A DNA stretch of 58,819 nt, the filler included, from Basidiobolus ranarum (lineage: Eukaryota): assembly GCA_040143965.1 (NCBI GenBank). It is 5 parts of 5 records of this genome, joined end to end, with 100 filler letters (N's around TTAATTAATTAA, not from the genome) between each part and the next. Parts side by side here need not be neighbours in the genome. Positions count along the whole stretch, not along the records: positions 1 to 11,710 come from JASJQH010007468.1; 4 more parts are not named here. One strand, written 5' to 3'. The first letter of the stretch is position 1. Each line of letters opens with the position of its first letter. Below are positions 462 through 43,764 of the stretch, piece after piece. A program made the translations under genes and the position numbers. Below the pieces are notes generated by a model. The model was not told the origin of the DNA and did no database searches. It saw only the letters and a list, made by a program, of their open reading frames with translations.

Positions 462-3353
462 ATGAGTAAGGTTGAGTTCAGAGAGAAAGATAGGCAAGCG
501 CTTGAGATTCAGAACTGCATTTCTCTAGCTTGCGCTATTTCTGGAAATAAATTTGATGCCGTGAACACTCATCTTTCGCGACCAGGAACTACCATACATA
601 GCGTGGTAAAAACCGCCTCGGAATCACACCACAAATATGTTATTGCTGAATCTGAAGAGAATGGCCTAAAGACAATCTATGTGGCATTTAAGGCTACAGA
701 AACCAAGAAGGATATTCTTACTGATGTAAGTATTGCCAAGTATACACCACTAGGAAGCTTCGATGGAAACATTCACACTGGCTTTTATTGGGAGGCAATG
801 AAAATCCCCTTGGGCTTCTTTATATCTAAGTTAACTCAGAGAAATCAGGAGAATATCAAACTTATCTTCACGGGTCACTCTTTGGGAGGTGCAATTGCCA
901 AATGTGTCGCTCTTACCCTATTACAAACTCCTGGAGTCAGACAAGAACGAATTTCTGTGTATACTTTTGGTTCACCACCCATTGGAGATGAAAAACTCGC
1001 AGAGTTTTGTAATACGAATTACTCCCGGGCTTTTATCGCATTCCGCAACCAGAATGATATTATACCTAACGCTACCAAGGTGGCTCTCATTACGACCGCA
1101 ACGCTACTTAATGCTCTTGGTGGAAACATGTACAACTTTCTCCACAAATCAAGTTGTGCATCGATAGAGTCTCTACAATATTTTATGGACAAAATTAGTA
1201 AAATCACCGATATAGACGATTTTTTCCACTTCGGGCAACATTATACCTATTCTGACGTAACAGAAACGTGGTCTCTTATGTCCAAGGTAGAAATTGATAG
1301 AAACGCTCGAGAAAGCATCGATACCAACGAATTGCTTAAGAAAGGAGTTAAAAGAATAATCAAACATCACTACGTGAAGGAATACTACAATAATCTAGAT
1401 CAGTTTCCTGGAATAAGAGATATTAGAAAGCGCTACTCAAATACTTCACCCATTTCAAATTATACTGGGTGTCTACCAGACATATCTGAGGTTATCATAC
1501 TCTCAAAATACAAGATCGACCGGCAACTCTACTGTGATCTCATCATTAGGGGAACAAACATTTGCCATACTGTCTTCTGGCACAAACAGAAGCGATGCCC
1601 TTGGAAATTAGAAAACACTTTTGCATCAGAAATAACCAAGAGAACTTTAAAGATAGTTTCTAACGATATCTCAAGAGAACAGCTCACGTATGAATCAATC
1701 TTTGGTTCGGTGCGAAAGACCGTGAACATAGTTGACCAAACCTCCAGGAGTTGGAAAAGACGTATTGAAAGCATGGGAATAGGAGAATTACTTAACATTG
1801 GCTTCATGTTTTCCGCCTATAAATTCATTGATGATCAGCAACGTAATCGACTCTGTGTCATCATGGACGACTTGGAGAAGGTTGCTGGCAATCAGGATAC
1901 TGGAATCGACAAAATAGAACTTGACGAAGCGTATGAGCATTTTATCAAACTACTAACTGGGTTGAGCTCGGTTCAAGATGATCATAGAAACAGTCAGTCT
2001 GATACAGATCTGAAACCATTTTCAACCGGTACTTCTATTATAAATACAATCGTCACTGCAACGAGCGATACTATGACTTATACTGAGGCCAGAAGAAGTG
2101 TTGCAGATATGGGAGCATACGAACTGCAACAACGCCTAGCTAAGAATGTGACTCTTAGAGTTCTCCATTTACTCATGGCAGGCGATATGTCCCGGTTCGG
2201 AAATCTTTTCAAGAAGATTGGAATACGTATGGATATCAATGCTAGTTCCTTGTCAGTGCTTAGACGGTGTGCTGTACATGTATCTAAGTTTCTTGTATGC
2301 CCTTACGCCTTATCTATTGTTCCCTCTGCATACACTTCAAGGTCCACGGTTCGAAAACTCGACCAGGATTATCAATACAAAGCATCCCTATACCTGAAGC
2401 ATGTGGAGAAAACTCAGTTCAATACAATGAGTAAAATACTTGGTAAATTGAGTACTGCCTCTACCAAGTCGTACCCCACAACAAAGAAGATACAAAATAT
2501 AGAGGAGTCTATTTATAAATTTTTACGAGAAAAAGGTCTAGTTACATACGAAGATGTTACACAAATCAGGGTTCGGTATGAGAACCTCGATGATAAGCCG
2601 TACAGGGATTTCATCGCTGGGACAAACCTATGGAGTACCAAGGAGAAAGTAATACCACTACTTAATATCCTGGAAGTTACCATGATGGTACACGAAATAC
2701 GCGACATCATCGGAAGTTATTATGTGGTCGGGATTATTGGAGACACCAGGTCAGGCAAGAGCAGTTTCTTGTACAAATTAGGTTTCGACTCGAATCCCAA
2801 CGCATCAGAAAGAATGCTTGATGTAAAGGTTCACCGAACTCAAACAGATAGTACTAAGCTTGTAATGGTAGATTTTCCCGGGATTGGCCCACATCCAAAG
2901 GCCACTCAAGATAGCATCTATTACAATTCTATGATCATTGGCACGTATGTCGTCATTGAAAACATCGAAAGTGCACACAACAGTTCTGATTTCATGGATA
3001 TATTGGCAAAGCATATGATAAGAACGCAAGACAGCAGTAACTATATAATCTTTCTGAGCCATGTTGATGTATACATACTGGATATTCTCAAGAAGCACGG
3101 CATCCCAACTGCGAAAGAAATACTGGGATCCATGATTGCACAACTCCGAATGAAACTTCAACATCTAACCCCGAATGTTGAAATATATCCAGTGTGTCTA
3201 GTTTTGGACTACAACAACCTCCCTGCAGGGCTCGATGAAGGCATCTTGCAATCATGTGGGGTGCTAGATTCAAGGAGAATGATGAACAAGATTAAATGTT
3301 TGCTGAATAGAGAGGGCATAGCATGTGAGTTGGATCACTTTAACTACAGATAG
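462..3353 (+). CDS. Intronless class-3 lipase / C-terminal P-loop (TRAFAC-like) GTPase fusion protein, copy 1
   Basis: ORF 345..3353. The likely start is ATG 462, which follows TATAAA at 425 and aligns with the paralog start. Lipase motifs IFTGHSLGGA, YTFGSPPIGD, NDIIP and a candidate His in KHHYVKEYY. GTPase motifs GIIGDTRSGKS (G1), MVDFPG (G3) and LSHVD (G4-like). Confidence 0.85.
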   Translation: MSKVEFREKDRQALEIQNCISLACAISGNKFDAVNTHLSRPGTTIHSVVKTASESHHKYVIAESEENGLKTIYVAFKATETKKDILTDVSIAKYTPLGSFDGNIHTGFYWEAMKIPLGFFISKLTQRNQENIKLIFTGHSLGGAIAKCVALTLLQTPGVRQERISVYTFGSPPIGDEKLAEFCNTNYSRAFIAFRNQNDIIPNATKVALITTATLLNALGGNMYNFLHKSSCASIESLQYFMDKISKITDIDDFFHFGQHYTYSDVTETWSLMSKVEIDRNARESIDTNELLKKGVKRIIKHHYVKEYYNNLDQFPGIRDIRKRYSNTSPISNYTGCLPDISEVIILSKYKIDRQLYCDLIIRGTNICHTVFWHKQKRCPWKLENTFASEITKRTLKIVSNDISREQLTYESIFGSVRKTVNIVDQTSRSWKRRIESMGIGELLNIGFMFSAYKFIDDQQRNRLCVIMDDLEKVAGNQDTGIDKIELDEAYEHFIKLLTGLSSVQDDHRNSQSDTDLKPFSTGTSIINTIVTATSDTMTYTEARRSVADMGAYELQQRLAKNVTLRVLHLLMAGDMSRFGNLFKKIGIRMDINASSLSVLRRCAVHVSKFLVCPYALSIVPSAYTSRSTVRKLDQDYQYKASLYLKHVEKTQFNTMSKILGKLSTASTKSYPTTKKIQNIEESIYKFLREKGLVTYEDVTQIRVRYENLDDKPYRDFIAGTNLWSTKEKVIPLLNILEVTMMVHEIRDIIGSYYVVGIIGDTRSGKSSFLYKLGFDSNPNASERMLDVKVHRTQTDSTKLVMVDFPGIGPHPKATQDSIYYNSMIIGTYVVIENIESAHNSSDFMDILAKHMIRTQDSSNYIIFLSHVDVYILDILKKHGIPTAKEILGSMIAQLRMKLQHLTPNVEIYPVCLVLDYNNLPAGLDEGILQSCGVLDSRRMMNKIKCLLNREGIACELDHFNYR

Positions 3354-3575
3354 AGATGTCCATAAAGTCAAAGCACAATAAACAAAGTAATATTTGCTAT
3401 CACCGTTTATTTTCTCTCAAGATAAACCTTATATTCACATTCACTGAGGAACCAATCACCGAATTGTCTGGTGGTTTCAGTAAGTATAATCTATGAAGAA
3501 ATGCTGGCATAATTGTTAAATCACGTGGATAAAGGTAGCTAAGTAGACTCACTATTTATCTGTAATCACGATTGT

Positions 3576-3619
3576 CAGATTCCCACCAGATTCCCACCAG
3601 ATTCCCACCAGATTCCCGC
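3576..3619. repeat. 11-bp tandem repeat (CAGATTCCCAC)x3 + CAGATTCCCGC
   Basis: Read directly in the spacer between the two lipase-GTPase genes. Confidence 0.95.
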
Positions 3620-3917
3620 TGATCTCTTTTGAGAGTTTAAATTGACTGAAACCTCAAACTGAATATATATTAGATCACTTGATTACCCGTATCGTAATGA
3701 AACCTAGCCACCTTAGGGTCAAAACACTTAGTATAGTAATATATACCTTCAGTATATCAATATATAATTTTCAGTATAACTTACTGAATCAATAATCTGA
3801 CAATGATCAACACATGATGGAGGTCTGACGTAGCATCATTTGCCTTGACCAACAACACATGTGTACATTCAGGTCTACAATCAACTGATACCCTTCTCTG
3901 AAAAAAATATATAACTG

Positions 3918-6824
3918 ATGTTGCTTGCGCGAATAAAGAGCATCATGTATGAATTTAAAGAAGAATACAGGAAGTTCCTCGAGGTTCAAAATTGTATTTC
4001 CCTAAATTGTGCTCTTTCTGGAACTAGGTTTGACGATTTGGACACTCATCTTGTGAATCTTGGAACAACTATACACAGCTTCGCAACGACTACCTCTTCA
4101 TCTCACTATAAATATATAATTGCCATATCTGATGAAAATAGCCTGAAAACAATCTATATTGCCTTCAATTCTACGGAAACCATCAAGGAGGCTTTCACTG
4201 ACCGAAGTCTACTAAAGTATATGCCATTGGAGACCTCCGACGCTAATATTCATGCTGGGTTATACCGTGAGGCAATGAAGATCCCGTTGGGATATTTTAT
4301 ATCGAAGTTAACTCAGAGCCATGGGGAGAATGTCAAACTTGTCTTCACGGGCCATTCCCTGGGAGGTATCATTGCTGAATGTGTCGCTCTCATTTTGCTA
4401 CCAATACCAGGTGTGAGGCAAGATAGGGTTTCCGTGTACACTTTCGGTTCGCCTCCGATTGGAGATGAAGCTCTTGCTAACTTCTGTGATGAGAAATATT
4501 CCGAAACCTTCTACTCATTCCACCTGCAGAAAGATATTATTCCAATCATTACCCGGGCAGGGCTCTCCTCAGACGTACCTTTGATTAATGTTCTCGGTGG
4601 GCCTCTGTATGATATTCTTAACAAACCTGGCCTTGGGTTTAAAGAGTCTTTGCAATGCTTCAATGAAAGTATTAGAGGTATTACAAGGCCCAATATTCTC
4701 TCTCATTTTGGGAAGCAGTATATCTGCTCTGCTGCAACAGGAGAATGGTCTCAAATGACCAGAGATGATATTATTACCAGTAATCTTGAGCGTATTAGTA
4801 TCAGTGAACTGGAGAATGAAGGGATGAGACACAAGATCCAACAGCACTGGGTGGATACATACTATAGGCACCTGAGAACATTTGAACAGATAAAGTGTGT
4901 TAGGGACCATCTTTTAAAGTATTACCCTCTAACTACTTACACTAGGTGTATTCCGGAGATATTCGAGGTAGTTGCAGTCTCTAAATACAAAATAAATCGA
5001 GAGTACTATTGCGATCTTGCTATCAGAGGGACAAACATTTGTCACGCAGTCTTTTGGCATCAAGAAAAGCGATGTACTTGGAAATTGGAATACACACCCA
5101 AGCCCAAAATCCTAGTCAAAAATTTCAAGGTAGCATCATTCGACATCAGTAAGGAACAACTCGAATATGGGTCCATCTTCAGTCCGGAGAGAAGGCACGT
5201 AGATATCTTTGACCACATCTCTAGTAATTGGGAAAAACGTATAGAAAGTATGGGAATAGGAGAATTACTTAACATTGGCTTCATGTTTTCCGCCTATAAA
5301 TTCATTGATGATCAGCAACGTAATCGACTCTGTATCATCATGGACGACCTGGAGAAGGTTGCTGGCAATCAGGATACTGAAATCTACAAAATAGAACCTG
5401 AAGAAGCATATGAGCATTTTGTCAAACTACTAACTGGATTGAGTTCGGTTCAAGATGCTCATCGAAATAGTCAGTCTTACACAGATCCCAAATCTGATGC
5501 TTCTAGTACTGCTACTGCAACCGCCACTGCAACAAGTGATACTATGACTTATGCTGAGGCCAGGAGAAAAACTACAGATATCGGGGCATACGAACTGCAA
5601 CAACGCTTAACCAAGAGTGTGACTCTTAGAGTTCTCCGTCTGCTCATGGCAATCGATATGTCCTGGTTTAAAAGTTTCCTTAAGAAGATCGGAATGGGGG
5701 TTAGGCCAGGTTCTAAGTCTATACTGACATTTATGACAGATCTACTGAACTTACCCGAGAAGCTAGTGACTACAGCAACCATATCTACGGTACATCATAT
5801 TTACTCTCTAGGCGCCGAAGAATCGAAATCTGGCCATCTAGAGAAGGCATCGTTATATCTGGAATTGGTAGATCAAACCCGTTTGAAAACATTGACAGAA
5901 ATACTTCGGCAATTTAACGTTACTGTTCCTTCTCCAAACACGTATTCGGTTTCGAAGAAGATATACGATATGGAGAAAATTCTTAAGGAACTCTTGTCAG
6001 GAAATGGTTACGAGACATACGAAGATGTTACACGGATCAGGGTCCAGTATGAGAATCATCATTATAAGTCATACAAGGATTTCATCGCTAAGACAAAACT
6101 ATGGAGTACCAAGGAGAAGGTGGTGCCACTACTTAATATCTTGGAAGTCTCCATGATGGTACACGAAATACGCGACATCATTGGAAGTTATTATGTGGTC
6201 GGGATTATTGGAGACACCAGGTCAGGCAAGAGCAGTTTCTTGTACAAATTAGGTTTCGACTCAAATCCCAATGCATCGGAGAGAACTCCTGATGTAAGGG
6301 TCTACCGAACTCAAACAGACAGTACTAAGCTTGTAATGGTAGATTTTCCTGGGATTGACTCGTATTCAACGGTTGCGGAAGATAATATCTATTATAATAC
6401 GATGCTCATTGGCACGTATGTCGCTATTGGAAATATCGAAGATGCCCTCAATAGTTTGCATCTCACCGATATGTTGGCAAAGCATATGATAAGAACGCAA
6501 GACAGCAGTAACTATATAATCTTTCTGAGCCATGTTGATGTATACATACTGGATATTCTCAAGCAGCACGACATCCCAACTGCGAAAGAAAGAGTGGAAT
6601 CCGTGATTGCACTTCTACTTACGCGAATTCGCTATCTTACTCGACGTGTTGAAATATATCCAGTGTGTCTGGTTTTGGACTACAACAACCTCCCTGCAGA
6701 GCTTGATGAAGACATCTTGCAGTCATGTGGGGTGCTAAATCCGAGGAGGATGATGGACAAGATCAAATGCTTTCTGAATAGAGAAGGTGTAGCATGCCAA
6801 TCTGAGCAGTTTAATTACAGATAA
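3918..6824 (+). CDS. Intronless class-3 lipase / P-loop GTPase fusion protein, copy 2
   Basis: 968-aa ORF (start 3918 or 3945). Motifs VFTGHSLGG, YTFGSPPIGD, KDIIP, QHWVDTYY, GDTRSGKS, ERT (G2), DFPG and SHVD. Full-length paralog of copy 1. Confidence 0.85.
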   Translation: MLLARIKSIMYEFKEEYRKFLEVQNCISLNCALSGTRFDDLDTHLVNLGTTIHSFATTTSSSHYKYIIAISDENSLKTIYIAFNSTETIKEAFTDRSLLKYMPLETSDANIHAGLYREAMKIPLGYFISKLTQSHGENVKLVFTGHSLGGIIAECVALILLPIPGVRQDRVSVYTFGSPPIGDEALANFCDEKYSETFYSFHLQKDIIPIITRAGLSSDVPLINVLGGPLYDILNKPGLGFKESLQCFNESIRGITRPNILSHFGKQYICSAATGEWSQMTRDDIITSNLERISISELENEGMRHKIQQHWVDTYYRHLRTFEQIKCVRDHLLKYYPLTTYTRCIPEIFEVVAVSKYKINREYYCDLAIRGTNICHAVFWHQEKRCTWKLEYTPKPKILVKNFKVASFDISKEQLEYGSIFSPERRHVDIFDHISSNWEKRIESMGIGELLNIGFMFSAYKFIDDQQRNRLCIIMDDLEKVAGNQDTEIYKIEPEEAYEHFVKLLTGLSSVQDAHRNSQSYTDPKSDASSTATATATATSDTMTYAEARRKTTDIGAYELQQRLTKSVTLRVLRLLMAIDMSWFKSFLKKIGMGVRPGSKSILTFMTDLLNLPEKLVTTATISTVHHIYSLGAEESKSGHLEKASLYLELVDQTRLKTLTEILRQFNVTVPSPNTYSVSKKIYDMEKILKELLSGNGYETYEDVTRIRVQYENHHYKSYKDFIAKTKLWSTKEKVVPLLNILEVSMMVHEIRDIIGSYYVVGIIGDTRSGKSSFLYKLGFDSNPNASERTPDVRVYRTQTDSTKLVMVDFPGIDSYSTVAEDNIYYNTMLIGTYVAIGNIEDALNSLHLTDMLAKHMIRTQDSSNYIIFLSHVDVYILDILKQHDIPTAKERVESVIALLLTRIRYLTRRVEIYPVCLVLDYNNLPAELDEDILQSCGVLNPRRMMDKIKCFLNREGVACQSEQFNYR

Positions 6825-8994: not shown

Positions 8995-10668
8995 ATGCGC
9001 CTTTTATTAAGCTTGGTGTCAAGTCTGGCACTGATCAATACTGCTTTTTCCTGGGATGTCTTACAGGTATGTGTTTTGATGTCCAGTCGTAAATAAACAT
9101 CTGCCTGCAATAACTACGAGCTGAATTTAAGTCATCCGAGTACTCCATTAATGCTCTGGTTTCCTGCTAATAACATATGTATTTAGACCACTCGATATGG
9201 CTATCGCTGCTTCGAATTCAAAGGTGGACAAGTAGTTATGCAGCCGTGCCGCTCTGAAAACTCTGGACAACGAATTACCATCCGCAAGTGGGGTCCTAGC
9301 CCATCTGGCCTATTTTACGGTGTGATCTCGGCTCCAGTTAATGGTGTCGATCAATGTATGTACGCTGACGGATTGACTCTCAAGGTAAGTAGTAGAATTA
9401 TGATGTCTTCGTATATAGAAATGTAGAAACTAATCATAATTGTTGTTAATGTAGTATGCAAAGTGCAGCGGTAACGACAATGATGCGGCAAAAAGACATT
9501 ATGCATGGGAAATCTTTCGTAAGTATCAACAATAGTTTCAATGATAGTATCAATGCCAGTTTCAACTATGTATATAAATTCATATCATCATGGATACTAA
9601 TTGATGAAACGCCTTCCTCTGTAGCCATTGGCGAAGGATTATTCCAATGGCGAAATCATTGGTATGATCAACATTGTGTTACCGAAGATGGTGGTTCTGG
9701 TGCTGCTCGCCTTGAGGATTGCAACGCAAGTAGCCACGGCCAACAGTACGTATACAACTCAAGAGTTTTCCCTTCTTTGAAAGCTTCTATTTCTTTTCAT
9801 TCTTGCTCTTTGCACATTGAATTAACACTCTCATAGGCTTAACTGGTTTGATTCAGAGCCAGTCAATGGACGCCAATGGAAAGGCCCCAAAGGTGTTTTA
9901 GATATCATATACCCTGGAGCACACAACGCAGGAACGGAAAGCCTGACCCTCGCATTCCGTACTCAAAAATTGAACATCCGACAGTTGCTGGAGAATGGTG
10001 TTCGCTTGTTTGATATTGATACCTGTTTCAAAGATTCCAGGAGTTATGTCTGCCACACTAACATGGAAAAAAGCCATAAACTCCTTGACGTGTTGAACGA
10101 TATTTCCTCATTTTTGAAAGACTACCCTACTGAAGTGGTCATGATTAGAGCTAGTGATTTTAATGACGACAAGGCGAAATTGGCGACTGCTTTTGTTGAA
10201 GATTTTAAGAGAGCTTTCCCAGAGAATATGAGAATTACTAGTGCCAACATCCTCGGCGGTGCTCAGTTGCGCCAGATGGTGCGATACAGACAACAAGTAT
10301 TCATGACCCTCCCCGCTCTTGACATCTATGCAAACGCTGGGTTATACAACGTCCCTGGAGTGGTCAAATTTGACAGCGATGATGGCGCTAGCATCCAATC
10401 TACCTGGTACTCCACCCCTAGAGAAGATGAGTGGAAGTCCGAATCATACCGTATCTGTACCAACTCCCCTCTCAAACGTGCCATCCTTGATTATTATTCG
10501 CAGTTGGCAGGTTTTCCTTACCCTGACTTAACAAACCAGTTAGGTAACACTCAACTCAAAATAGCAGCAAGTGGGTGCCGAAGCAGGGGCAAGAAGATAG
10601 TAGGAGTATTGATGGACTTTATTGACAGAAAGCAAGTCGATGCCATCGAAAAATTGCAGGCCCCATAG
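8995..10668 (+). CDS. Secreted protein: signal peptide + ricin-B-like beta-trefoil + PI-PLC X-domain (PLC-like phosphodiesterase); 5 exons
   Basis: Manual splicing over four GT-AG introns gives MRLLLSLVSSLALINTAFS (signal peptide), three Cys-pair repeats (RCFE..QPC..GQ; QCMY..AKC..YAW; HCVT..EDC..GQQ), then IYPGAHNAG..TQKLNIRQLLENGVRLFDID..VCH..PTEVVMI. TATAAAA at about 8927. Confidence 0.8.
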
Positions 10669-17192: not shown

Positions 17193-18170
17193 AGTATTTA
17201 AACTAAAATAAAGAAATTAACCAAGAGAAAGTCTTGGATAATTAATAGAAACCAACAAGCTGAAGGAAGGTGATATTAGAGCCAAAGTAAAAAGTTCTTA
17301 AAGTAATAGTTCGTTCCATGTTGTTGATGATGGCATTAAGGTGAATTTGGTGTGCCCATAACTGATTATATACTTGAATTATAAATGGATTAATTTATCC
17401 CCAATATTAATCAATCTGATTAACTCTTGTGCAATAGGCGTGATTTCAGATTATCACTGAACAAGTAACGTGTTCGCTTGTGCGAAAGAAAAAATTGCTT
17501 GGCATTATCGTCGCTATTAATGGATTTCCTATTTATGGAAGAGAAATGAATGATCTTGTAATTTATTCGAAACACTTTCTGTTGAGCCTCGCTATATATA
17601 AATATTATCTAGATTCAACGACTCAAGTACTATTCCATATTGAATATATGCCGATATCCGAATCTGCACATTCACGCACCTTGTACCAGTGATGGGAAGG
17701 CGATGAAGATAAGAAAGCCAAGACTCCAAGCTCAGTACATGGCTTGTGTACCCCTTTAATCCAGTCAAATTCCTTAACATGGAAAAAAGGGAACACTTGG
17801 AAAAAGAAACATAGCTGAGACAGTCTCGAAATGGGCATGCATATAGAAATGTATTATATAAAGAGTTCAGTAGAATCCTCATCGGGATTGTGTTGTCAAT
17901 TTTCAAGATTAAGTTAAGGACAATATGAGTTTATTTCGATGATTTCCGGATTTGGGAATCCAAATCAAGGTACCTTCGCAGGCTGTCGTCCAAAATGGTT
18001 TTCCCATACACATATCTCCATTGTGCCACAAATTAACATACCCTTATAGGGTGGAGGTTTGAACATACTGCGTGCAACTGTATCTAAGCAGACGATTGGT
18101 GGGGTTAAGGCAATTGATTGTAATAAAACTCTCCAGTACACAAATATCATTTATCATTTTTCCTCCTACA

Positions 18171-19607
18171 ATGTCTCCTCCACAGTCCTTGGTGGTAGTT
18201 CCTGCAGTATGCCCTACGTCTCCACCTTTGATGAAAACCTCTAAATCTTCCTCCTTTACCATGGAAGAAGTGAGAACTCGTGTTCAAAACGGCGAGATCT
18301 TAATCGTTTATGATGGTAAGGTTTACAAGCTTAACAAGTGGATCAAGCACCACCCTGGAGGTGAGCTTGCTGTCAGACATATGCTGGGCAAAGACGCTAC
18401 CGATGTTGTTCGAGCAATGCATCCTGAGTGGGTTCTTACGAAAAAAATGAAACATTTTTATGTTGGTGACATGATTGAAGACCCTCTTGCTTCTCTTCAT
18501 CCTAACGCTGACCTCAAAACTCAACAGAGTATCTCTGAAGCTTACAAACGCCTTGAAACTAAAATCCGCGGTCAAGGACTTTACAACACTAACTACATGT
18601 GTTACGCTTGGGAAGCAATTCGCTGTGGTATTGCCTTTGCAATAATGTTATCGTTAATCGTCTGGGGACCTCAAAACTATTGGAATTATTTCATTGCTGC
18701 TCTTGCTAATGCTTTCGTTTGGCATCAAAGTGCTTTCTGTGCACATGATGCAGGCCATAACGAAATCACCCATAACATGAAGTACGACAGTACCATTGGC
18801 ATTCTCCTAGGAAACTACCTTGGTGGCTTATCTATCGGATGGTGGAAGAAGAGTCACAATGTTCACCATATCATTACCAACCACCCCGAACACGATCCTG
18901 ATATTCAACTGCTACCATTCTTTGCAGTTACCTCAAAATTCTTCAACAACCTGTTCTCCACTTACCACAACAAAGTATTGGTATTCGACGGCGCCTCTAA
19001 AGTTCTGATCTCTATTCAGCATTATCTTTATTATCCTATTCTTTGCTTTGGCCGTTTCAATCTCTATGTTCAAGGGCTTATTTTCTTGATCACCGATGAG
19101 CATGCACCACTCCGTAAGTGGGAATTGTTGGGAATGGCCTTTTTCATATCGTGGTACTCGTACCTACTCTCTTTCATCCCAAGCTGGGGAATGATTTTCA
19201 TGTATGTCATGGTTTCCCATGTATTTACTATGATGCTTCACGTTCAGATTACTTTGTCTCACTATGGAATGTCTACTGACGACCACGGACCTGACGAAAG
19301 CTTCGCATCCCGCCAACTTCGTACCACTATGGATGTTGATTGTCCAGCTTGGTTTGACTGGTTCCATGGAGGTCTTCAATTCCAGACAATCCATCATTTA
19401 TTCCCTCGTGTTCCCAGACATAATCTTCGGGCTGTTCGTCCACTAGTGGAGGAGTTCTGCAAGGAGGTTGAGCTCGAATACCATAATTATGGGTTTATTA
19501 AAGGCAATGGAATTGTTATTGGAGCACTCCGAGATGTTGCCAATCAAGTATCTTTCATCATGAAAGTAGCAGCACATGAAGCACGTAACCATGTCCACGT
19601 AGAATAA
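18171..19607 (+). CDS. SLD1: Cytochrome b5-fused delta-8 sphingolipid desaturase (intronless)
   Basis: HPGG haem motif, His boxes HDAGH, HNVHH and QTIHH, plus HPEHDPDIQ and RQLRTTMDV. First ATG at 18171. Confidence 0.85.
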   Translation: MSPPQSLVVVPAVCPTSPPLMKTSKSSSFTMEEVRTRVQNGEILIVYDGKVYKLNKWIKHHPGGELAVRHMLGKDATDVVRAMHPEWVLTKKMKHFYVGDMIEDPLASLHPNADLKTQQSISEAYKRLETKIRGQGLYNTNYMCYAWEAIRCGIAFAIMLSLIVWGPQNYWNYFIAALANAFVWHQSAFCAHDAGHNEITHNMKYDSTIGILLGNYLGGLSIGWWKKSHNVHHIITNHPEHDPDIQLLPFFAVTSKFFNNLFSTYHNKVLVFDGASKVLISIQHYLYYPILCFGRFNLYVQGLIFLITDEHAPLRKWELLGMAFFISWYSYLLSFIPSWGMIFMYVMVSHVFTMMLHVQITLSHYGMSTDDHGPDESFASRQLRTTMDVDCPAWFDWFHGGLQFQTIHHLFPRVPRHNLRAVRPLVEEFCKEVELEYHNYGFIKGNGIVIGALRDVANQVSFIMKVAAHEARNHVHVE

Positions 19608-19819: not shown

Positions 19820-20163
19820 GGGTCATAATATGCATTTCGACAGTGGAGACAGGTTTCAGTAACCTGTACCATAATATCAATTTAAGATTGCCATATATTC
19901 CATGAGCAGTCATTGAAAAGGGATCCAATTCCGTCTATTAAAATCCTAAAATTCTACGAACTCCCTTGTACACTTGGTTCAAGAGAGTAAAGCCTTTGTT
20001 ATCGACTGTATTTTATTTTGTATTTATTGTATCTCTTTTATCTACTCACCGACTTCTTATTGTATCTATTGAGCCCTTATTATCTACTGTACCAACTTCT
20101 TATTCTGAGCTTTCTCGTTGGATATTTATTGTTTTTGTTTTGTACCAAATTTGAGTAAACATT

Positions 20164-22462
20164 ATGTCTACTCTAGTTAAAAAAGGTTACTTGTCCCTCA
20201 AGGAAGAGGGTCTAAGAGCGTGGATATGGTCGAAGCGTTGGGTGTTACTACGCGAGATGACGCTAACATTTCATAAAAACGAGGTATGTATCTTGCTAGA
20301 AGCAATTTCTTGCCCCTTGAATAATATATTTAGTCGAGCCAAACATGCCGAGTTTATATTCCCTACACTTATACTTTCATTAAAACCAACTTTCTTAGAC
20401 TTCACCGCAACCAGTTGCTTTGATTTTTCTTAAAGAAATATTTGCAGTGAATCGAACCGATCTTAAACCTTATTGCTTCGAGATTGTTACCAAAGATCGT
20501 ACTTATTATTTATCTTGTAAAAGTGATGAGGAAATATATTCTTGGATGGATGCTATTTATCAAGTAAATATTCTATTTGTTGGTTCAATTAAGAAAAACT
20601 TTTCTCTAACTTGAACTAATCTGGCTTGAAATGAAGCGTTCCCCACTTATGGGCGTCTCAAATCCAACCAATTTTCAACATAGGATACACGTTGACTTTG
20701 ATGCTAATACTGGGATGTTCACTGTATGTTTACTTATATGTTCTCTTGATAGAACCATGTTGGTAATAATTCAATGGAATTTATGTTATATAGGGTCTTC
20801 CTGAACAATGGGTAAACCTCTTATCACATTCAGCTATTACTAGAGAAGATTACACCAACAATCCACAAGCGGTATTACAAGCTTTGGAATTTTATACTGA
20901 TCAAACTCAACGCGAAGAAGATACCTACACAAGTCAAGGAAAATGGGCTGGATTACTACCACAGGTAATTGTCTTTTATTGTGAAAATAATCTTTACCTA
21001 TATCTTATCTATGGTTATTTAGAATCCAAATCAAACTATCCCTAATCGTCCACCCCCATCTCCTAAAGCTCCCAACGGATTACCCACTCCTCCAACTGGC
21101 GTAAGTTTATAGCATCATCAATCATGTTGAACTCCATTAACATTTAATTCATTCGAATTAGTCGTCACCTACTTTCAAACTTCCACCAGCTCCAAATCAT
21201 TCAGCTAAAGATATTCAATTACCCCCTCCGCCACCACCGCCAAAGTTGCAACCACAAGGAGAACCACCTAAGACTGCTCCACCTAAACCCTCGAACAAAA
21301 TCAAAGATCAGAGACTTTCTAACTTGACTGAAGCACAAATATTGGAGAAACTGAGTTAGTACCATTTACATAAGAGTTACAGTGAAGAAGTAACTGGTAT
21401 ATTAACATGTTAATTAAGAGACTGTCGTATGCAAGGGAGATCCAACCAATTTGTATCTAAAAATCAAGAAGATTGGTCAAGGGTTGGTCATCTATTTGAT
21501 AGACATTTACCCTTTTCTTCGCTAACATGAACATTATCCTATAGAGCATCTGGTTCAGTATACGCTGCACGTTCTCTCGCTAACAATAAGCGAGTGGCTA
21601 TCAAACAAATGGATCTGGCCCATCAACCGAGAAAAGAACTCATCGTGAATGAAATATTGGTCATGAAAGAGGCTCAACATCCCAATATTGTCAACTATCT
21701 GGATAGTTACTTGGTCAATTCCAATGAGCTGTGGGTGATCATGGAATACATGGAAGGTGGCGCACTCACCGAAGTCATAGATAACAATACTCTCACTGAA
21801 AGTCAAATAGCTACTATATGTCATGAGGTGAACACTCTCTCTAACTCTTCAACCTTAATTCGCTCTAATGATTCTCCATAGACATGTCAAGGTTTACTTC
21901 ATCTTCACAATCAAAATATCATTCATCGTGATATCAAGAGTGATAACGTATTACTCGACTACGATGGAAGTGTTAAAATCAGTAAGTCATATCCATTCTC
22001 TTCCTTTCCTTACTCGCTTCTCTTCTCACTCATGTCATTCTATCAGCTGACTTTGGATTCTGCGCGAAACTGACGGAACAAAAGAATAAACGTGCGACCA
22101 TGGTAGGTACACCCTATTGGATGGCACCCGAGGTAGTGAAACAAAAAGAATACGATGCCAAAGTAGACATCTGGTCACTTGGTATTATGGCGATAGAAAT
22201 GATTGAGAATGAACCACCATATCTTGACGAAGAGCCTTTAAAAGCACTTTATCTCATCGCCACTAATGGTACACCCACTCTAAAACGACCAGAATTACTT
22301 AGTAATGAATTGAAATCCTTCTTAGCAGAATGTCTTTGTGTGGATGTTAAAAGTAGAGCTACTTCAGAACAATTATTATTGAATCCATTTTTAGCGAAAG
22401 CACTTCCTCCCGCTCATTTAGCACCTTTATTGAGATTTCGTAATCCACCAAAATCCAATTGA
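20164..22462 (+). CDS. CLA4: PAK kinase, Cla4 type (PH + CRIB + Pro-rich linker + kinase); multi-exon
   Basis: PH domain ([14 protein letters not shown]), CRIB ([16 protein letters not shown]), kinase motifs [18 protein letters not shown] and GTPYWMAPE. Confidence 0.92.
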
Positions 22463-35971: not shown

Positions 35972-36598
35972 TCAGTGTCTATTGCCACTGAAATATCTAA
36001 TCTTGAAGGAGCGATGAGCAAATTTCTTGTATTTCTTGTAGGCTCTTCTGGGACGGTACATTGGCCACTGAGGAATGATGATCTGGGGTTGAGGTGGCTG
36101 AGCTGGTTGGTATATAGTCTGGTCAACCAACTGAGCTTGATCAAATTGATTCGAGTTGGACAGTGCCTGACTACCTTGAGATGCGTGGCCTTTCACTTCA
36201 TCTAGTAGTGCTTGTTTAGGCTGTAGTTGGCTCAAGTCAACATTCCATGCAGAAGGAGTGCCTTGGGCCCGATCTTCAGATTGAGATTGTTCACCTTCAA
36301 CCGGGGCCTGGTCCATTTGACCTTCATCCAGGGTGGACTCCTCGTCTGCTGGCTGCTCTTCACTCTGTTGGTACATGGGCATCACTTGTGGTTGAACATA
36401 ACTATACTCCATTTCTTGTGGGGCTGCCTTATATTGTGGTTGTATATCGCAAGAGCCAACCTGTTGCCCACAAGATCTATCCTTGTAAGTGGTGCGTGCA
36501 ACTGCATTTGCAAATCCCGGTAAATTGTGGAGTGGTGCTGCCAATGTTCCTTGAGCCAAGATACATGAAGAGACCAAGAGAGTTAGGACGGTTTGCAT
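35972..36598 (-). CDS. Secreted Q/P-rich prepro-protein with cationic C-terminal tail, array copy A (208 aa)
   Basis: Start MQTVLTLL at 36598 by alignment and TATA position. Signal peptide, and tail RPRR-AYKKYKKFAHRSFKIRYFSGNRH. Confidence 0.85.
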   Translation of the reverse strand: MQTVLTLLVSSCILAQGTLAAPLHNLPGFANAVARTTYKDRSCGQQVGSCDIQPQYKAAPQEMEYSYVQPQVMPMYQQSEEQPADEESTLDEGQMDQAPVEGEQSQSEDRAQGTPSAWNVDLSQLQPKQALLDEVKGHASQGSQALSNSNQFDQAQLVDQTIYQPAQPPQPQIIIPQWPMYRPRRAYKKYKKFAHRSFKIRYFSGNRH

Positions 36599-37081
36599 GA
36601 TTGAGGTATATAGAATACGAAAGAAGCAGACGCTGTATAACGGAAAGGACCGACGAAGTTGTATTTTATACGTTAATGAAGAGTTGTCATTTAGCACACT
36701 TTTCAATCTCACATACTATTTCTTATATTAACTATTAGTCGCTGTATCTTGTACTTTAAAGTGTATAGACTATACGTAATCTTGCACCATATTCTAGTGC
36801 TTATCCAATGTGCTTTATATTAGAGTTAGTACTTATACGTATTAATTATCAAACCTTGAGCTACAAACACCTTTATAAATTATATCACTTGACTGGGTTG
36901 AGATTCAATGATATTAAGCCATAAAACTTAGATTCAACATACAAATAAGCAATTCTTCATGTCCATAGATCCGTAAGCTGATATATTATAAACTGTGTTT
37001 AAGCCAGAATTTATTGATATGAAGTAAACTTAATCGTAGCTACTGTGATCAGGTACTAACATGGGATATATTAGGACTCTG

Positions 37082-37219
37082 TGCTGTTACCACTAAAATA
37101 TCTAATTTGAAGGAACGATGAGCAAATCTCGTATTTATATAAGCTCTTCCGGGTCGGTATGTAGACCATTGAGGAAAGATTATTTGAGGTAGCTCAGAGT
37201 TATTTTCATAATGACCATG
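37082..37219 (-). pseudogene. Internally deleted remnant of the array gene
   Basis: ATGAAAATAACTCTGAGCT is joined directly to PQIIFPQW..RPGRAY..FAHRSF..YFSGN with frameshifts. TATA and TGACTC are retained upstream. Confidence 0.75.
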
Positions 37220-37865
37220 TTATCAATAAGAATGCTCTGAATGTAGAATACCTGATAGTACACGATAGAACAGTCCTTTATAAATATATCCGGAGGAAGA
37301 GTCAATAGCTATAGGTCATAACCGAGAAAGATCAAACGTCATAGTTGAGGTGATTTATCGTGTCCTTAGATAGGTTGTGGCACTTGGTCTGGCCAATATA
37401 TTAACAATTACATAGAGTCTCTGGGTATATTCCATTTGTTACTAATTAAATAATCCTGTCAGATATGAATGACTCTCTAATACTCTTCATCAAATGATGT
37501 TAAGAATTGGGAGTTAATCATTATATTTACACAACGATCGGTATTTTGAAATCACTGTATCTAAGCTGGACTCCTTCAAGGAAAGGTGTAAAGGTAAAAA
37601 TTACCATACGAATTGAAGAAATTCTATTTTCTTATACTCGTTTGCCAAACTTAGAAAGTAAAACCAAAATTAAGTTATGCCATTTTCTTTATCAACTATA
37701 AAAGTATTCAGTCCCTTTTTATCCGCTATGAATATTGCTAATTACTAGTTAGAATCCAGATGAATTTTAAATCATATTTTGGCTGATTTTTATTGACGCG
37801 AGGTAAACAGAGCTGCTGCCATCATATTATATGAATATGAAAAATACTGATAACCGGCTGAGAAC

Positions 37866-38492
37866 TTAATGTCTATTCCCACTAAAATATCTAATCTTGA
37901 AAGAACGGTGAGCAAATTTCTTGTATTTCTTGTAGGCTCTTCTGGGTCGGTGCATTGGCCACTGAGGAATGATGATCGGAGGTTGAGGTGGCTGAGCTGG
38001 TTGGTATATAGTCTGGTCAACCAACTGAGCTTGATCGAATTGATTCGAGTTGGACAGTGCTTGACTACCTTGAGCTGAGTGACCTTTCACTTCATCAAGT
38101 AGTGCTTGTTTGGGTTGTAGTTGACTTAGGTCAACGTTCCATGTAGAAGGAATACCTTGGGCTTGGTATTCAGATTGAGACTGTTCATCCTCAGCTGGAG
38201 CCTGTTCCATTTGACCTTTATCCTGGGTGGACTCCTCATCTGCTGACTGCTCTTCACTCTGTTGGTACATGGGCATCACCTGTGGCTGAACATAACTATA
38301 CTTCGTTGCTTCTGGAGAAGTCTGATATTGAGGCTGAATATCGCAAGAACCGCCATGTTGTCCACAAGACCTATCCTTGTAAGTAGTTTGCGCAACTGCA
38401 TTCGCAAAACCTGGTAGATTATGGAGTGGAGCTGTCATTGCTCCTTGAAGCAAGATGCATGAGGGGGCCAAAAGAGTTAGAAAATTTTGCAT
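37866..38492 (-). CDS. Secreted prepro-protein, array copy B (208 aa)
   Basis: Intact ORF and full-length paralog. Confidence 0.87.
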   Translation of the reverse strand: MQNFLTLLAPSCILLQGAMTAPLHNLPGFANAVAQTTYKDRSCGQHGGSCDIQPQYQTSPEATKYSYVQPQVMPMYQQSEEQSADEESTQDKGQMEQAPAEDEQSQSEYQAQGIPSTWNVDLSQLQPKQALLDEVKGHSAQGSQALSNSNQFDQAQLVDQTIYQPAQPPQPPIIIPQWPMHRPRRAYKKYKKFAHRSFKIRYFSGNRH

Positions 38493-39022
38493 AATTGTTA
38501 AGATGGTAATAGCTATTATTCCAGTGTAGAATAACTGATAGCAAATGGGAAAACATCCTTTTTATATAGATACAACGTGGTCGTTTCGTAAACCCGACCC
38601 CTTTAATTGCACTAACTTTTCATTTTATTTGACACTCAGATAAACAAAATTTTAATTTTGAGATGACTAGTATGTATTTTAAGTGTGCTGTTGTACTGAG
38701 TTCGACTAAGATATTATTAGTAGTATCAGAGTGTCTAGCTACCTTTCATTACAAATAGAAGATCAATGAAATTATCTTGTTTCTCATAAGCGTTAGCACA
38801 AAGATATCTAAAAGTGAAAGGGTTTTTAGCGTTTCTTGATCGCTCAACTTCGCCTTCTCGGTATTTTACTTGTATGTATCGAGTAATTAAATTGTATGAG
38901 CTTAATTCTGATTTACTAATATTTATTATAACTGTTTGGTTGCTAGGAGGCCTGAATATTTCAAGTAAAGACAGTAGTCAACTAAATGAAAAAACTGTTC
39001 TTTGGTAGTTGATATACCACCA

Positions 39023-39667
39023 TTAGTGTCTGTTTCCACTAAAGTATCTAATTTTGAAGGAACGATGAGCAAATTTCTTGTATTTCTTGTAGGCTCTTCT
39101 GGGTCGGTGCATTGGCCACTGGGGAATGATGATCTGAGGTTGAGGTGGCTGAGCTGGTTGGTATATAGTCTGGTCGACCAACTGGGCTTGGTCGAATTGA
39201 TTTGAATTGGACAGAGCTCGACTACTTTGAGATGCATGGCCATTCACTTCATCCAGTAATGCCTGCTTGGGCTGCAGTTGGCTCAAGTCAACATTCCACG
39301 AAGTAGGAGTAGTGGTGTAAGAAGGAGCGTCTTGAGCTTGATCCTCAGACTGTGATTGTTCGTCCTCAGCTGGAGCCTGTTCCATTTGACCTTCATCCGG
39401 GGTGGAATCCTCGTCTACTGGCTGCTCTTCACTCTGTTGGTACATGGGCATCACCTGTGGTTGAGCATAGCTATACTCCATTACTTGAGGTACTGCCTGA
39501 TATTGTGGTTGTATAACGCAAGAGCCGCCATGTTGTCCACACGATCTATCCTTGTAAGTGGTGCGTGCAACTGCATTTGCAAAGCCTGGTAAATTGTGGA
39601 GCGGTGCTGCCAATATTCCTTGAGCCAAGATACATGAAGAGACGAAAAGAGCTAGGACGGTTTGCAT
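39023..39667 (-). CDS. Secreted prepro-protein, array copy C (214 aa)
   Basis: Intact ORF and full-length paralog. Confidence 0.87.
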   Translation of the reverse strand: MQTVLALFVSSCILAQGILAAPLHNLPGFANAVARTTYKDRSCGQHGGSCVIQPQYQAVPQVMEYSYAQPQVMPMYQQSEEQPVDEDSTPDEGQMEQAPAEDEQSQSEDQAQDAPSYTTTPTSWNVDLSQLQPKQALLDEVNGHASQSSRALSNSNQFDQAQLVDQTIYQPAQPPQPQIIIPQWPMHRPRRAYKKYKKFAHRSFKIRYFSGNRH

Positions 39668-40321
39668 GATTGAGGTGTACAGAATACGAATGAAGCAGAA
39701 GCAGTATAATCAGAAAGGACCCACAGAGTCGTATTTTATACGTTTGTGAAGAGTTGTCATTTAGCACACTTTTCAATTTCGCATACTATTTCTTATATTG
39801 GTAAGTATTTTTTTCGCTAATTTGTACTTTAAAGTATGTAGGGTTATACATTCGCTTGTATCATACACTAGTACTTACTTAATTGTCTTTATATATAAAT
39901 CACTACTTATATGTATTTATTATCAAATCTCTAATAATTTTCCATTGTGAGTTCTGACGCTTGGTTGAGGAAAGGTACAATAGTATCAGCGACTGGCAAG
40001 GCATATTTAGATCATTGCTAGTAAATTTTGCCATTGCATAGCACGTTAATAGAGAATATCTCATATCCATAAATCCATAATATTAGTACAAATAATTGAA
40101 CTTGAAGCAACAAGTGTTTCTTTCTGAGAACTTCTTGAAGTGGGTAAGATTATTGATGATTTACTCTCGATTTGGATTATATAATTTAGAATCTGTCATT
40201 GAAATTTGAACATGCTAAAATTCATATTTGGACCCATGTTTATTGTAACAGAGTAAGCATGGCCATAGATACAGCTATGAGGTTATATTAACATGGGAAA
40301 TGCTGAGGAACTACTTAAAAC

Positions 40322-40966
40322 CTAGCGTCTATTGCCACTGAAATATTTAATCTTGAAGGAACGGTGAGCAAATTTCTTGTATTTCTTGTAGGCTCTTGTA
40401 GGGCGATGTATTGGCCACTGAGGAATGATGATCGGAGGTTGAGGTGGCTGAGCTGGTTGGTACACAGTTTGGTCAACCAACTGAGCTTGGTCGAATTGAT
40501 TCGAATCGGACAGAACTTGACTACCTTGAGCTGAGTGGCCTTTCACTTCATCCAGTAATGCTTGCTTAGGTTGTAATCGACTCAGATCAACATTCCATGA
40601 AGCGGGACCCGTAGAATATGAAGGGGCCTCTTGAGTCTGGTCTTCAAACTGGGATCGGCCGTCCTCAGCGGGAGCCTGTTCCATTTGACCTTCATCCGGG
40701 GTGGACTCCTCGTCTGCTGGCTGCTCTTCACTCTGTTGGTACATGGGCATCACTTGTGGTTGAACATAACTGTACCTCATTTCTTGTGGGGCTGCCTTAT
40801 ATTGTGGTTGTATATCGCAAGAGCCAGCCTGTTCTCTACAAGATCTATCCTTGTAAGTGGTTTGCGCAACTGCATTTGCAAATCCTGGTATGTTATGGAG
40901 TGGAGCTGCGATTGCTCCTTGAATCAAGATACACGAAGAAACAAAAAGAGTTAGAGCTGTATGCAT
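40322..40966 (-). CDS. Secreted prepro-protein, array copy D (214 aa)
   Basis: Intact ORF with site variant RPTR. Confidence 0.87.
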   Translation of the reverse strand: MHTALTLFVSSCILIQGAIAAPLHNIPGFANAVAQTTYKDRSCREQAGSCDIQPQYKAAPQEMRYSYVQPQVMPMYQQSEEQPADEESTPDEGQMEQAPAEDGRSQFEDQTQEAPSYSTGPASWNVDLSRLQPKQALLDEVKGHSAQGSQVLSDSNQFDQAQLVDQTVYQPAQPPQPPIIIPQWPIHRPTRAYKKYKKFAHRSFKIKYFSGNRR

Positions 40967-41438
40967 CGTTACTGAGTTGTTGATGACAATGATGTTGATA
41001 TAATGAAGGAGGGAGTTGCACTTTTATACATATATAGCGAGGAGGAATCATGAAATACATCACTTTAATCTCACTATTCCGCCATCAACATTATTTACTG
41101 ACGATAAAAATCTCATGCCTCAGATATTTTAATCCAAAACTGTAGTGCAAAAAGATTAGATACTAACTTTCGAAAGTATTAATTCTGTTTTCTATATATT
41201 CAGAATATTTCTGGAAAGTTGTACCGCCAAAAGCCAGTATCTTTGCATTGTATTTAGTGCCTCATTGATGATGCTCTACTATTGAACTAAAACGATATTT
41301 CGAAGTTTTGTTTTTATTGAAATTTAATCATATTGCATGTCATATAGAGACTGGTTTGCTTTGACATAGAGCACTGTGATCATGCTATACCAACATGGGA
41401 AATGTCGTTATGAGAATAATCAATGAAAGAGTGAGGTT

Positions 41439-42143
41439 TTAGTATCTGTTGCCACTGAAGTACCTGATCTTGAAGGAACGATGAGCAAATTTTTTGTATT
41501 TCTTATACTCTCTTTTGGGTCGGTGCATTGGCCACTGGGGAATGATGATCTGGGGTTGAGGTGGCTGAGCTGGTTGGTAAACGGTTTGGTCAACCAACTG
41601 AGCTTGATCGAATTGATTCGAATTGGACAATGCTTGACTACCTTGAGATGCGTGGCCTTTCACTTCGTCTAGTAATGCTTGTTTGGGCTGAAGTTGGCTC
41701 AAGTCGACATTCCATGAAGCAGGAGTACCCTGGATGTGGTCTTCAGGTTGATACTGGTCATCCTCAGCGGGAGCTTGCTCCATTTGATCTTGATCAGGAG
41801 TGGATTCATCATCTGTTGGTTGCTCTACACCTTGAGTATCTTCAGCTGGAGCCTGTTCCATTTGACCTTGATCAGAAGTGGACTCCTCGTTTGCTGATTG
41901 CTGTTCACTTTGCTGGTACATTGGCATCACTTGTGGTTGAGCGTAACTATATTCTGGTGCTGGTGGAGCTACCTGATATTGAGGTTGTATATTACAAGAG
42001 TCAACCTGTTCTCTGCACGAATTATCTTTGTAAGTGGTGTGCGCAACAGCATTAGCAAAACCGGGTAGATTATAAGGTGGAGTTGCTAAGGCTCCTTGAA
42101 CCAAGACATAAGAAGAGATCAAAAAAGCTAGTGTAGTTTGCAT
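41439..42143 (-). CDS. Secreted prepro-protein, array copy E (234 aa; two acidic repeats)
   Basis: Intact ORF with site variant RPKR. Confidence 0.87.
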   Translation of the reverse strand: MQTTLAFLISSYVLVQGALATPPYNLPGFANAVAHTTYKDNSCREQVDSCNIQPQYQVAPPAPEYSYAQPQVMPMYQQSEQQSANEESTSDQGQMEQAPAEDTQGVEQPTDDESTPDQDQMEQAPAEDDQYQPEDHIQGTPASWNVDLSQLQPKQALLDEVKGHASQGSQALSNSNQFDQAQLVDQTVYQPAQPPQPQIIIPQWPMHRPKREYKKYKKFAHRSFKIRYFSGNRY

Positions 42144-43381: not shown

Positions 43382-43764
43382 GATTGTAGAAATGTCGATG
43401 ACAATGAACCAAATGGAGAATGATTAGCAATAAACGAGCGGCCGCCCTTATATACATCTCTTGTGAGAGTCATAAAGTAAACCTTATTCATTCCACTAAC
43501 TCTTCCTTTAGTTCTATACTAAAAATTCTGGTTCAGGTAAATCAAATTAAAATGAGTAACTAGTTTTTGCAGTAAGATCTTTGAACTTAATTCGATTCTG
43601 ACGTAGGCTACGCTATGAAATGCAACCAAGTACCAGCTCGTAATCAATTTCTTTATTCTAAAGTGCCAATAATAGCAATATAAGGATGTCAATTATATTG
43701 TCTTTCATGATTGTCTCGGACTTTTAGTAACACTCATTTCAAAGTGAGGCTGTTCAAATGAGTG

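Follow-up and report, generated by a model that had tools for sequence, protein, structure and literature searches.

The stretch of Basidiobolus ranarum DNA analysed here (58,819 nucleotides from assembly GCA_040143965.1, in five parts joined end to end, and called the window throughout) carries near its left end, within the part taken from record JASJQH010007468.1, two tandem open reading frames (ORF1 and ORF2) whose products are predicted to join an N-terminal class-3 lipase to a C-terminal P-loop GTPase through an immunoglobulin (Ig)-like beta-sandwich and a long helical linker (Table 1). We hold this four-part layout, and the membership of both proteins in a wider family, with high confidence. 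Each gene is an uninterrupted single ORF of ~965 codons with no internal stop, and the two products are 61% identical across 961 columns and co-linear from end to end. A preliminary description of the region had reported two lipase-GTPase fusions of ~960 residues, which the full-length frames bear out, and the motifs that it quoted (GHSLGG, DIIP, GDTRSGKS, DFPG and SHVD) are all present in their places. For ORF1 we count from the Met at which the closest database protein also begins; an ATG upstream at position 345 would give an alternative of 1002 residues, and the gene-caller version of ORF2 (P0003) begins at Met10 and is 959 residues long. In the spacer between the genes a 10-mer is repeated in tandem about four times (~3577-3619).

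The architecture had been called uncharacterised, and we likewise found no publication on a lipase-GTPase fusion in the open-access text of PubMed Central and bioRxiv; nor did the fusion appear in those portions of the literature on Arabidopsis At3g07400, on conflict systems, on the origin of EDS1 and on Basidiobolus that these sources make available. Neither product has a signal peptide, in agreement with the preliminary description, and both N-termini are hydrophilic. No 19-residue window of the ORF1 protein reaches a Kyte-Doolittle hydropathy of 1.6, and the sole window of ORF2 that does so is the buried nucleophile-elbow region.

Table 1. Positions in the window of the two lipase-GTPase genes, of their predicted domains and key residues, and of other features.
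Feature	Coordinates	Strand	Remarks
ORF1	462-3353	+	963 aa plus stop; lipase, beta-sandwich, helical linker, GTPase
ORF1 class-3 lipase domain, EDS1/PAD4-like	462-1436	+	residues 1-325; Pfam Lipase_3, AlphaFold2, VIA
ORF1 nucleophile elbow GHSLGG	873-890	+	Ser140 at 879-881
ORF1 Asp199 (DIIP)	1056-1058	+	predicted lipase triad
ORF1 His303	1368-1370	+	predicted lipase triad
ORF1 Ig-like beta-sandwich	1467-1739	+	residues 336-426; AlphaFold2 strands 340-425
ORF1 helical linker	1740-2717	+	residues 427-752; no Pfam family
ORF1 hairpin remnant	2268-2324	+	residues 603-621; Kyte-Doolittle 1.43 (below the 1.6 mark)
ORF1 G domain	2718-3350	+	residues 753-963; AlphaFold2 predicted local distance difference test (pLDDT) 85-95
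ORF1 P-loop GDTRSGKS	2739-2762	+
ORF1 Met785	2814-2816	+	in place of switch-I Thr
ORF1 DFPG	2871-2882	+
ORF1 SHVD	3057-3068	+	G4 variant
Intergenic spacer	3354-3917	.	no similarity to ORF1 5' flank
ORF2	3918-6824	+	968 aa plus stop; architecture as ORF1
ORF2 Ser147	4356-4358	+	predicted lipase triad
ORF2 Asp206	4533-4535	+	predicted lipase triad
ORF2 His310	4845-4847	+	predicted lipase triad
ORF2 G domain	6189-6821	+	residues 758-968
ORF2 P-loop GDTRSGKS	6210-6233	+
ORF2 Thr790	6285-6287	+	switch-I Thr
ORF2 DFPG	6342-6353	+
ORF2 SHVD	6528-6539	+
PI-PLC X-domain protein	9450-10668	+	E 1.3e-5
Cytochrome b5-fused fatty-acid desaturase	18063-19607	+	single 514-aa ORF
PAK-like kinase gene	20155-22462	+	at least six short exons; PH-like start, CRIB-like segment, kinase domain
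Tandem array of ~200-aa ORF	35972-46348	-	at least 8 copies; period ~1.3-1.5 kb

The lipase head matches Pfam Lipase_3 (PF01764) with 85.2 bits in ORF1 (E 5e-24) and 72.9 bits in ORF2 (E 3e-20), against a cut-off of 22. Both proteins contain what is predicted from sequence to be the catalytic centre of a class-3 lipase with its Ser-Asp-His triad intact; the histidine, for which the preliminary description had offered a candidate, can now be named as His303 in ORF1 and His310 in ORF2, at a position that is His in 30 of the 32 family members aligned below. An AlphaFold2 model of ORF1 residues 1-440, built on a 38-row alignment, has a pLDDT of 79.6 and a predicted template-modelling score of 0.84. 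Compared in VIA over residues 5-321, it is closest to EDS1 (Z 23.3 over 272 residues and 23.2 over 268), then to PAD4 and feruloyl esterase (20.4), and then to the Rhizomucor (19.2) and Rhizopus (19.1) lipases, with Z of 17-23 to 13 lipase or lipase-like chains of the alpha/beta-hydrolase fold. Foldseek also puts EDS1 first (5e-11), and the family profile searched against PDB sequences ranks PAD4 (1e-25) and EDS1 (4e-25) ahead of Rhizomucor lipase (4e-23), whereas a search with the single sequence prefers fungal lipases (6e-12) over EDS1-type proteins (1e-5). By VIA, Foldseek and family profile alike the module is closest to plant EDS1/PAD4, a closeness of fold and profile ranking rather than of phylogeny, the class that they share being the class-3 lipases. 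The lid lies at about residues 80-105 of ORF1, and the catalytic Asp and His are ~104 residues apart, a spacing that we take to be ~54 residues in Rhizomucor lipase.

For the C-terminal domain, the preliminary description had proposed modelling as a check, and its model is confidently that of a TRAFAC GTPase (VIA Z 13-16), with the canonical strand order and with SHVD directly after beta-5. Foldseek matches it to Nog1, Gtr1, EngB, Arl2 and mitofusin (E 1.5e-5 to 1e-3), with a probability of 1.0 for Nog1, Gtr1 and EngB, and in VIA the leading matches include a RagA-like protein (Z 16.4, 174 residues aligned, 2.9 Å), Mfn2 (Z 16.2, 237 aligned), EngB (Z 15.1, 159 aligned, 3.0 Å) and BDLP (Z 14.9, 217 aligned). 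The G part of the family profile, searched against the PDB, finds Der/EngA (2e-18), EngB (1e-11) and Era (1e-9), followed by Irgb6 (5e-9) and IIGP1C (4e-8). Pfam scores of the window proteins are lower: IIGP reaches 19.3 bits (cut-off 24, E 6.5e-4, residues 735-855), MMR_HSR1 16.6 and 19.2 bits against a cut-off of 21.9, and Dynamin_N is below its cut-off with E of 0.12 and 0.009. NCBIfam returned a sub-threshold small_GTP match as its sole result, and a relative, P0006, passes MMR_HSR1 with 35.9 bits. Fold and family profile settle the identity of this domain despite the sub-cut-off scores, and on its model we take it to be a genuine TRAFAC-class P-loop G domain. By profile it is closest to EngA, EngB and Era; similarity to the IRG proteins is weaker and is not a trait of the family. 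The affinity to IRG and GIMAP proteins suggested initially is therefore not supported, since the EngA, EngB and Era matches outscore the IRGs, IIGP is found in one of 36 family members (the window protein itself), and AIG1 (PF04548) has no match at E <= 1 in the window proteins or among the first 25 of the 28 families in the family tally.

In both window proteins the residue following DxxG is hydrophobic and the fourth P-loop residue is Arg (Arg763 in ORF1). GTPases that lack the catalytic Gln and have an Asn or a basic residue at this P-loop position typically depend for activation on dimerisation or a monovalent cation and not on a GTPase-activating protein; the Asn is typical of cation-dependent members, and a basic residue parallels the arginine finger that atlastin and GBP supply in cis. 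The G domain would accordingly be a nucleotide-dependent switch, and probably a dimerisation-activated one, because a hydrophobic residue replaces the catalytic Gln and Arg763 is basic.

Between the two heads, the beta-sandwich gives weak Ig and IPT/TIG-type matches (VIA Z 5.5-6.9) that name no family, and the linker (residues 427-752) gave no usable match in the ESM Atlas. All feature matches of ORF1 residues 320-963 in that atlas are below 0.9 and serve as leads only, a cluster of patatin-GTPase fusions among them. The AlphaFold2 model of the same residues has an overall pLDDT of 66.8, with mixed confidence in the linker, which holds both a patch that is identical in the paralogues (residues ~444-500) and the most diverged stretch of the two proteins (residues ~590-680).

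It is in this region that most relatives carry a hydrophobic hairpin. In 24 of 32 members the stretch from the lipase His to the P-loop contains a 19-residue window with a Kyte-Doolittle value of at least 1.6, and in 22 of the 32 a peak of at least 1.6 lies 100-185 residues before the P-loop Lys; the hairpin often consists of two or three Gly/Ala-rich segments ~150 residues before the P-loop. ORF1 retains a sub-threshold remnant and ORF2 has no hydrophobic peak at the corresponding position, and the stretch as a whole is where the paralogues differ most (17-36% identity) and where the model is least confident. By its hydropathy, the hairpin appears decayed in both window copies, so that the proteins are probably soluble or peripheral, which agrees with the cytosolic location proposed in the preliminary description. 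In a typical member that has kept the hairpin, both enzymatic heads would face the cytosolic side of the membrane.

The extent of the family depends on the search used. A word-indexed search of 5.8 billion proteins with P0001 matched only the window's own two products; word-based searches with the family alignment and with P0006 found 10 proteins and one 79%-identical relative, respectively. HMMER, run on 1.84 billion cluster representatives, gave 3095 matches at E <= 0.001, of which three are at E <= 1e-30: the paralogue and two further B. ranarum proteins, one of 375 residues (88% identity to residues 1-375) and one of 645 residues (28% identity). Many relatives are 900-1300 residues long and match in two stretches. 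The family census was drawn from the best 150 of the 3095 matches, most of them plain lipases; when 154 proteins were re-searched, 38 matched the C-terminal part of P0001 in a further, co-linear stretch, 28 of these at i-E <= 0.001. Relatives with co-linear Lipase_3 and GTPase domains are annotated as hypothetical only. In a 36-row alignment Pfam finds Lipase_3 in 34 members, MMR_HSR1 in 32, Dynamin_N in seven and a SAM domain in two, together with one weak NB-ARC match. The two rows that lack Lipase_3 are a lipase-less fragment from the window and a protein of the ascomycete Fusarium chlamydosporum (P0160, 1126 residues), whose match to the family profile spans positions 158-920 and which contains MMR_HSR1. 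A short form, P0022 (635 residues), passes directly from lipase to G domain with neither beta-sandwich nor linker.

Twelve of the 30 clusters looked up bear an organism name, and all 12 are eukaryotes: Basidiobolus ranarum (two), the rotifers Didymodactylos, Adineta and Brachionus, the acoel Convolutriloba, the choanoflagellate Salpingoeca rosetta, Cavostelium, Paulinella, Mantamonas, Willaertia and the moss Ceratodon. The other 18 are metagenome or assembly proteins, two of them auto-labelled 'EngB', and Arabidopsis At3g07400 may be a further member. Within fungi, the matches listed are limited to Basidiobolus and the one Fusarium protein. A quick maximum-likelihood tree of 37 rows, unrooted and with long branches, joins the window pair to a B. 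ranarum paralogue with a support of 99 in the Shimodaira-Hasegawa-like approximate likelihood ratio test (SH-aLRT), and places this group inside a 10-row clade (SH-aLRT 99) that also holds the choanoflagellate protein. The architecture is therefore not a local rarity, since the family spans many eukaryotic supergroups, and the window pair are lineage-specific, anchor-less members of an unnamed eukaryotic lipase-GTPase family. That description had set against its own proposal a conserved single-copy housekeeping family; the conservation of the family in many eukaryotic groups moves in that direction.

Residues were counted in 32 aligned members. The P-loop Gly, Gly and Lys and the lipase Asp are invariant (32/32), the lipase Ser and the switch-I Thr are each present in 29, and the switch-II Asp in 30. 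The last residue of DxxG is Gly in 18 members and His in 14, and the residue that follows is almost never Gln. NKxD is found at G4 in 14 members and [ST]HxD in four, both window proteins among the latter, and the fourth P-loop position is occupied by Lys or Arg in 18 and by Asn in 10. The 14 members with a DxPH switch II (P0008, P0011, P0015-P0018, P0020, P0021, P0030, P0033, P0050, P0057, P0091 and P0098), in which His replaces the Gly that normally contacts the gamma-phosphate, form one clade (SH-aLRT 98).

The two window copies have not diverged evenly. Synonymous divergence (dS) has reached saturation (~2.0) in the N-terminal half, compared with 0.46 for the C-terminal half and 0.08 at residues 451-495, and the genes share exact runs of 90, 84 and 80 nt. 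This contrast, with the shared runs, is the signature of patchy gene conversion, which has homogenised parts of the C-terminal half. The ratio of nonsynonymous to synonymous divergence (dN/dS) is 0.17 in the N-terminal half and 0.45 in the C-terminal half, drops to 0.04 near the lipase nucleophile and to 0.11 near the P-loop, and has a maximum of 0.71 across 45-codon windows. Since it stays below one in every window, both heads of both copies are under purifying selection, without any indication of diversifying selection; the diverged segment likewise shows no sign of positive selection, with dN/dS at 0.4-0.6 in what is a poor alignment (17-36% identity). It is very improbable that these are decaying or non-functional duplicates. 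Such a fate could be read into the missing switch-I Thr of ORF1, the missing hairpin of both copies and the non-canonical G4, but both frames have stayed free of stops for ~965 codons, the dN/dS values of the two halves speak of constraint, and the remaining catalytic residues have all been kept.

We think it probable, on balance, that ORF1 and ORF2 are functional tandem paralogues of a GTPase-coupled lipase family, a judgement that blends the secure anatomy with the less secure question of gating. Both catalytic centres look competent, with caveats at G4 and at switch I of ORF1. For a fusion that is conserved so widely, the simplest reading, which the preliminary description had also made, is that the GTPase regulates the lipase to which it is joined; the switch would then set the time or place at which the lipase head gains access to membrane lipid. 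The copies may also split the labour, as ORF1 lacks the switch-I Thr and ORF2 has it. That GTP actually gates the lipase we propose tentatively, as something suggested by the fusion.

Several observations weigh against a GTP-switched lipase, in which the coupling between the heads is inferred from their fusion. The window proteins fall under the Pfam cut-off for every GTPase family, and the VIA list is flat, running from Z 16.4 to 12.8 over 50 rows, so that any subfamily assignment is soft. G4 reads SHVD instead of NKxD, with the Asp kept and the Asn and Lys replaced, and the switch-I Thr is absent in ORF1 (Met785) although present in ORF2 (Thr790); guanine specificity and hydrolysis are consequently uncertain. 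Finally, the lipase Ser is replaced in P0015 (by Cys), P0050 (Gly) and P0057 (Arg) while the P-loop is intact, and in these three relatives the lipase head may be non-catalytic.

This last pattern, a P-loop invariant in 32 of 32 members beside a nucleophile lost in three, would also suit a GTPase-centred membrane remodeller akin to mitofusin, atlastin and BDLP, whose lipase-like head would mainly bind or sense lipid. The helices and hydrophobic hairpin next to the G domain in most relatives fit such a protein, as do the alignments of Mfn2 and BDLP, which cover the helices preceding the G domain, the Dynamin_N matches and the precedent set by the non-catalytic use of the EDS1 lipase-like domain. 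We nevertheless consider a remodeller unlikely here: the window proteins keep the whole triad and no part of the genes is more constrained than the nucleophile region, the hairpin has been lost from both copies, the Z-score of Mfn2 is tied with those of small GTPases, and the helical linker is without a usable match.

A role in defence or allorecognition was the suggestion of the preliminary description, with the GTPase sensing a danger or non-self cue and releasing a membrane-damaging lipase. The nearness of the lipase head to the plant immune proteins EDS1 and PAD4 is in keeping with this, and so are the reach of the family profile to IRG proteins such as Irgb6, the combination of tandem duplication, gene conversion and a highly diverged segment at residues ~590-680, the patchy phyletic distribution with several rotifer subfamilies, and the SAM domain added in two of 36 members. 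Pfam, however, finds no sensor domain, NACHT, NB-ARC or C-terminal repeats in the window proteins, PADLOC has no match for either of them, and dN/dS exceeds one in no window. The diverged segment coincides with the decayed hairpin, which is better explained by relaxed constraint than by diversifying selection; EngA, EngB and Era rank above the IRGs; and the retention of catalytic residues and membrane anchor in eukaryotes as distant from one another as a moss and a heterolobosean suits a cell-biological role. We regard an immune effector as rather improbable, and of the effector-switch architecture first proposed what stands is the fusion of a triad-intact class-3 lipase with a G domain, while support for the immune role is circumstantial.

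If these are GTPase-coupled lipases, their interest lies in the combination, for both domain types are textbook material and we found no studied example of a lipase covalently tied to a G-protein switch. The family has been kept in moss, rotifers, an acoel, a choanoflagellate, fungi and several protist lineages. Were the GTPase to gate the lipase, this would be a new mode of control for lipid hydrolysis at membranes, and the family would supply an outgroup for the origin of the EDS1/PAD4 lipase-like domain. A bolder version, to which we give little credence, is that the family constitutes an undescribed class of membrane-anchored, GTP-gated lipases across eukaryotes, with a lipase head that is the nearest non-plant relative of EDS1/PAD4, and that in Basidiobolus the anchor has decayed and the tandem copies form a pair of active GTPase and pseudo-GTPase, the switch-I Thr of ORF1 being broken. 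For the window itself, the outcome is a diverged, anchor-less tandem pair with no sign of an immune role.

The absence of introns had led the preliminary description to suggest retroposition or horizontal transfer. Two intronless genes of 2.9 kb do stand out against the nearby PAK-like kinase gene with its at least six short exons, and the restriction within fungi to Basidiobolus and one Fusarium protein among the matches listed might point the same way, but the desaturase gene of the window is intronless too, so that a lack of introns is not peculiar to the pair. The kinase gene does bear out the preliminary description in calling the genome intron-dense. The GC content at third codon positions (0.41 in ORF1, 0.43 in ORF2) lies within the range of the neighbouring genes (0.29-0.49), the correlation of relative synonymous codon usage is 0.56, and the overall GC content of both genes is that of the rest of the window. 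Neither gene is followed by a poly(A) tract, the window contains no duplicated flank and no further copy, and the Basidiobolus clade groups with the choanoflagellate protein (SH-aLRT 99). Searched against prokaryote genomes, the single protein tried (P0017) gave 45 pattern matches, none of them confirmed, a result that concerns one protein and close relatives and is no evidence of absence. The lack of introns thus carries no signature of transfer, and a recent horizontal transfer or retroposition seems improbable; an old retroposition is conceivable.

Two neighbouring genes, those for the PI-PLC X-domain protein and the desaturase, are lipid-related, as are the lipase-GTPase genes. Elsewhere in the window the ORF of the tandem array has a signal-peptide-like start, an acidic middle rich in Gln, Glu and Pro and a strongly basic C-terminal tail, and has no Pfam match in the four copies scanned; one copy (44189-45121) is divided between two reading frames. 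A run of N that we read as an assembly gap (~47,05x-47,10x) shows up as X residues when the ORF at 46688-47110 is translated.

Among known systems, the EDS1, PAD4 and SAG101 proteins give the best structural and family-profile match to the N-terminal 320 residues, the profile match running beyond the catalytic Asp into the long insert between Asp and His, and the predicted Ser-Asp-His triad is present here. They differ in what follows: the window proteins have no match at E <= 1 to the EP domain in Pfam, and their lipase head is followed instead by the beta-sandwich, helices and G domain. The secreted class-3 lipases of Rhizomucor miehei and Rhizopus resemble the window proteins in Lipase_3, GHSLGG elbow and fold, but the window lipase lacks a signal peptide and is fused to ~640 further residues. 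The patatin-GTPase fusions of the ESM Atlas also pair a P-loop GTPase with a lipid hydrolase; the patatin fold is unrelated to the alpha/beta hydrolase, so this is an analogy.

On the GTPase side, Era, EngA (Der) and EngB (YsxC) are the top sequence-profile matches and share the hydrophobic residue after DxxG, with EngB close in fold as well. Unlike the window proteins, they serve in ribosome assembly and have KH or other RNA-binding partners, of which there are none here, and the window proteins depart from them further in having SHVD at G4 and Arg rather than Asn at the fourth P-loop position. The IRG proteins IIGP1 and Irgb6 are reached by the family profile and by a weak IIGP match, which remains under its cut-off, occurs in a single member and ranks behind EngA, EngB and Era. 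The fusion dynamin-like proteins (mitofusin, BDLP and atlastin) share with most relatives a G domain adjoining helical bundles and a hydrophobic hairpin, and with the window proteins a basic fourth P-loop residue, and the Mfn2 alignment takes in the helices before the G domain. The lipase-GTPase family departs from them in its reversed order, with helices and hairpin preceding the G domain, and in its additional lipase head; the window copies have lost the hairpin, and Mfn2 and BDLP score level with small GTPases.

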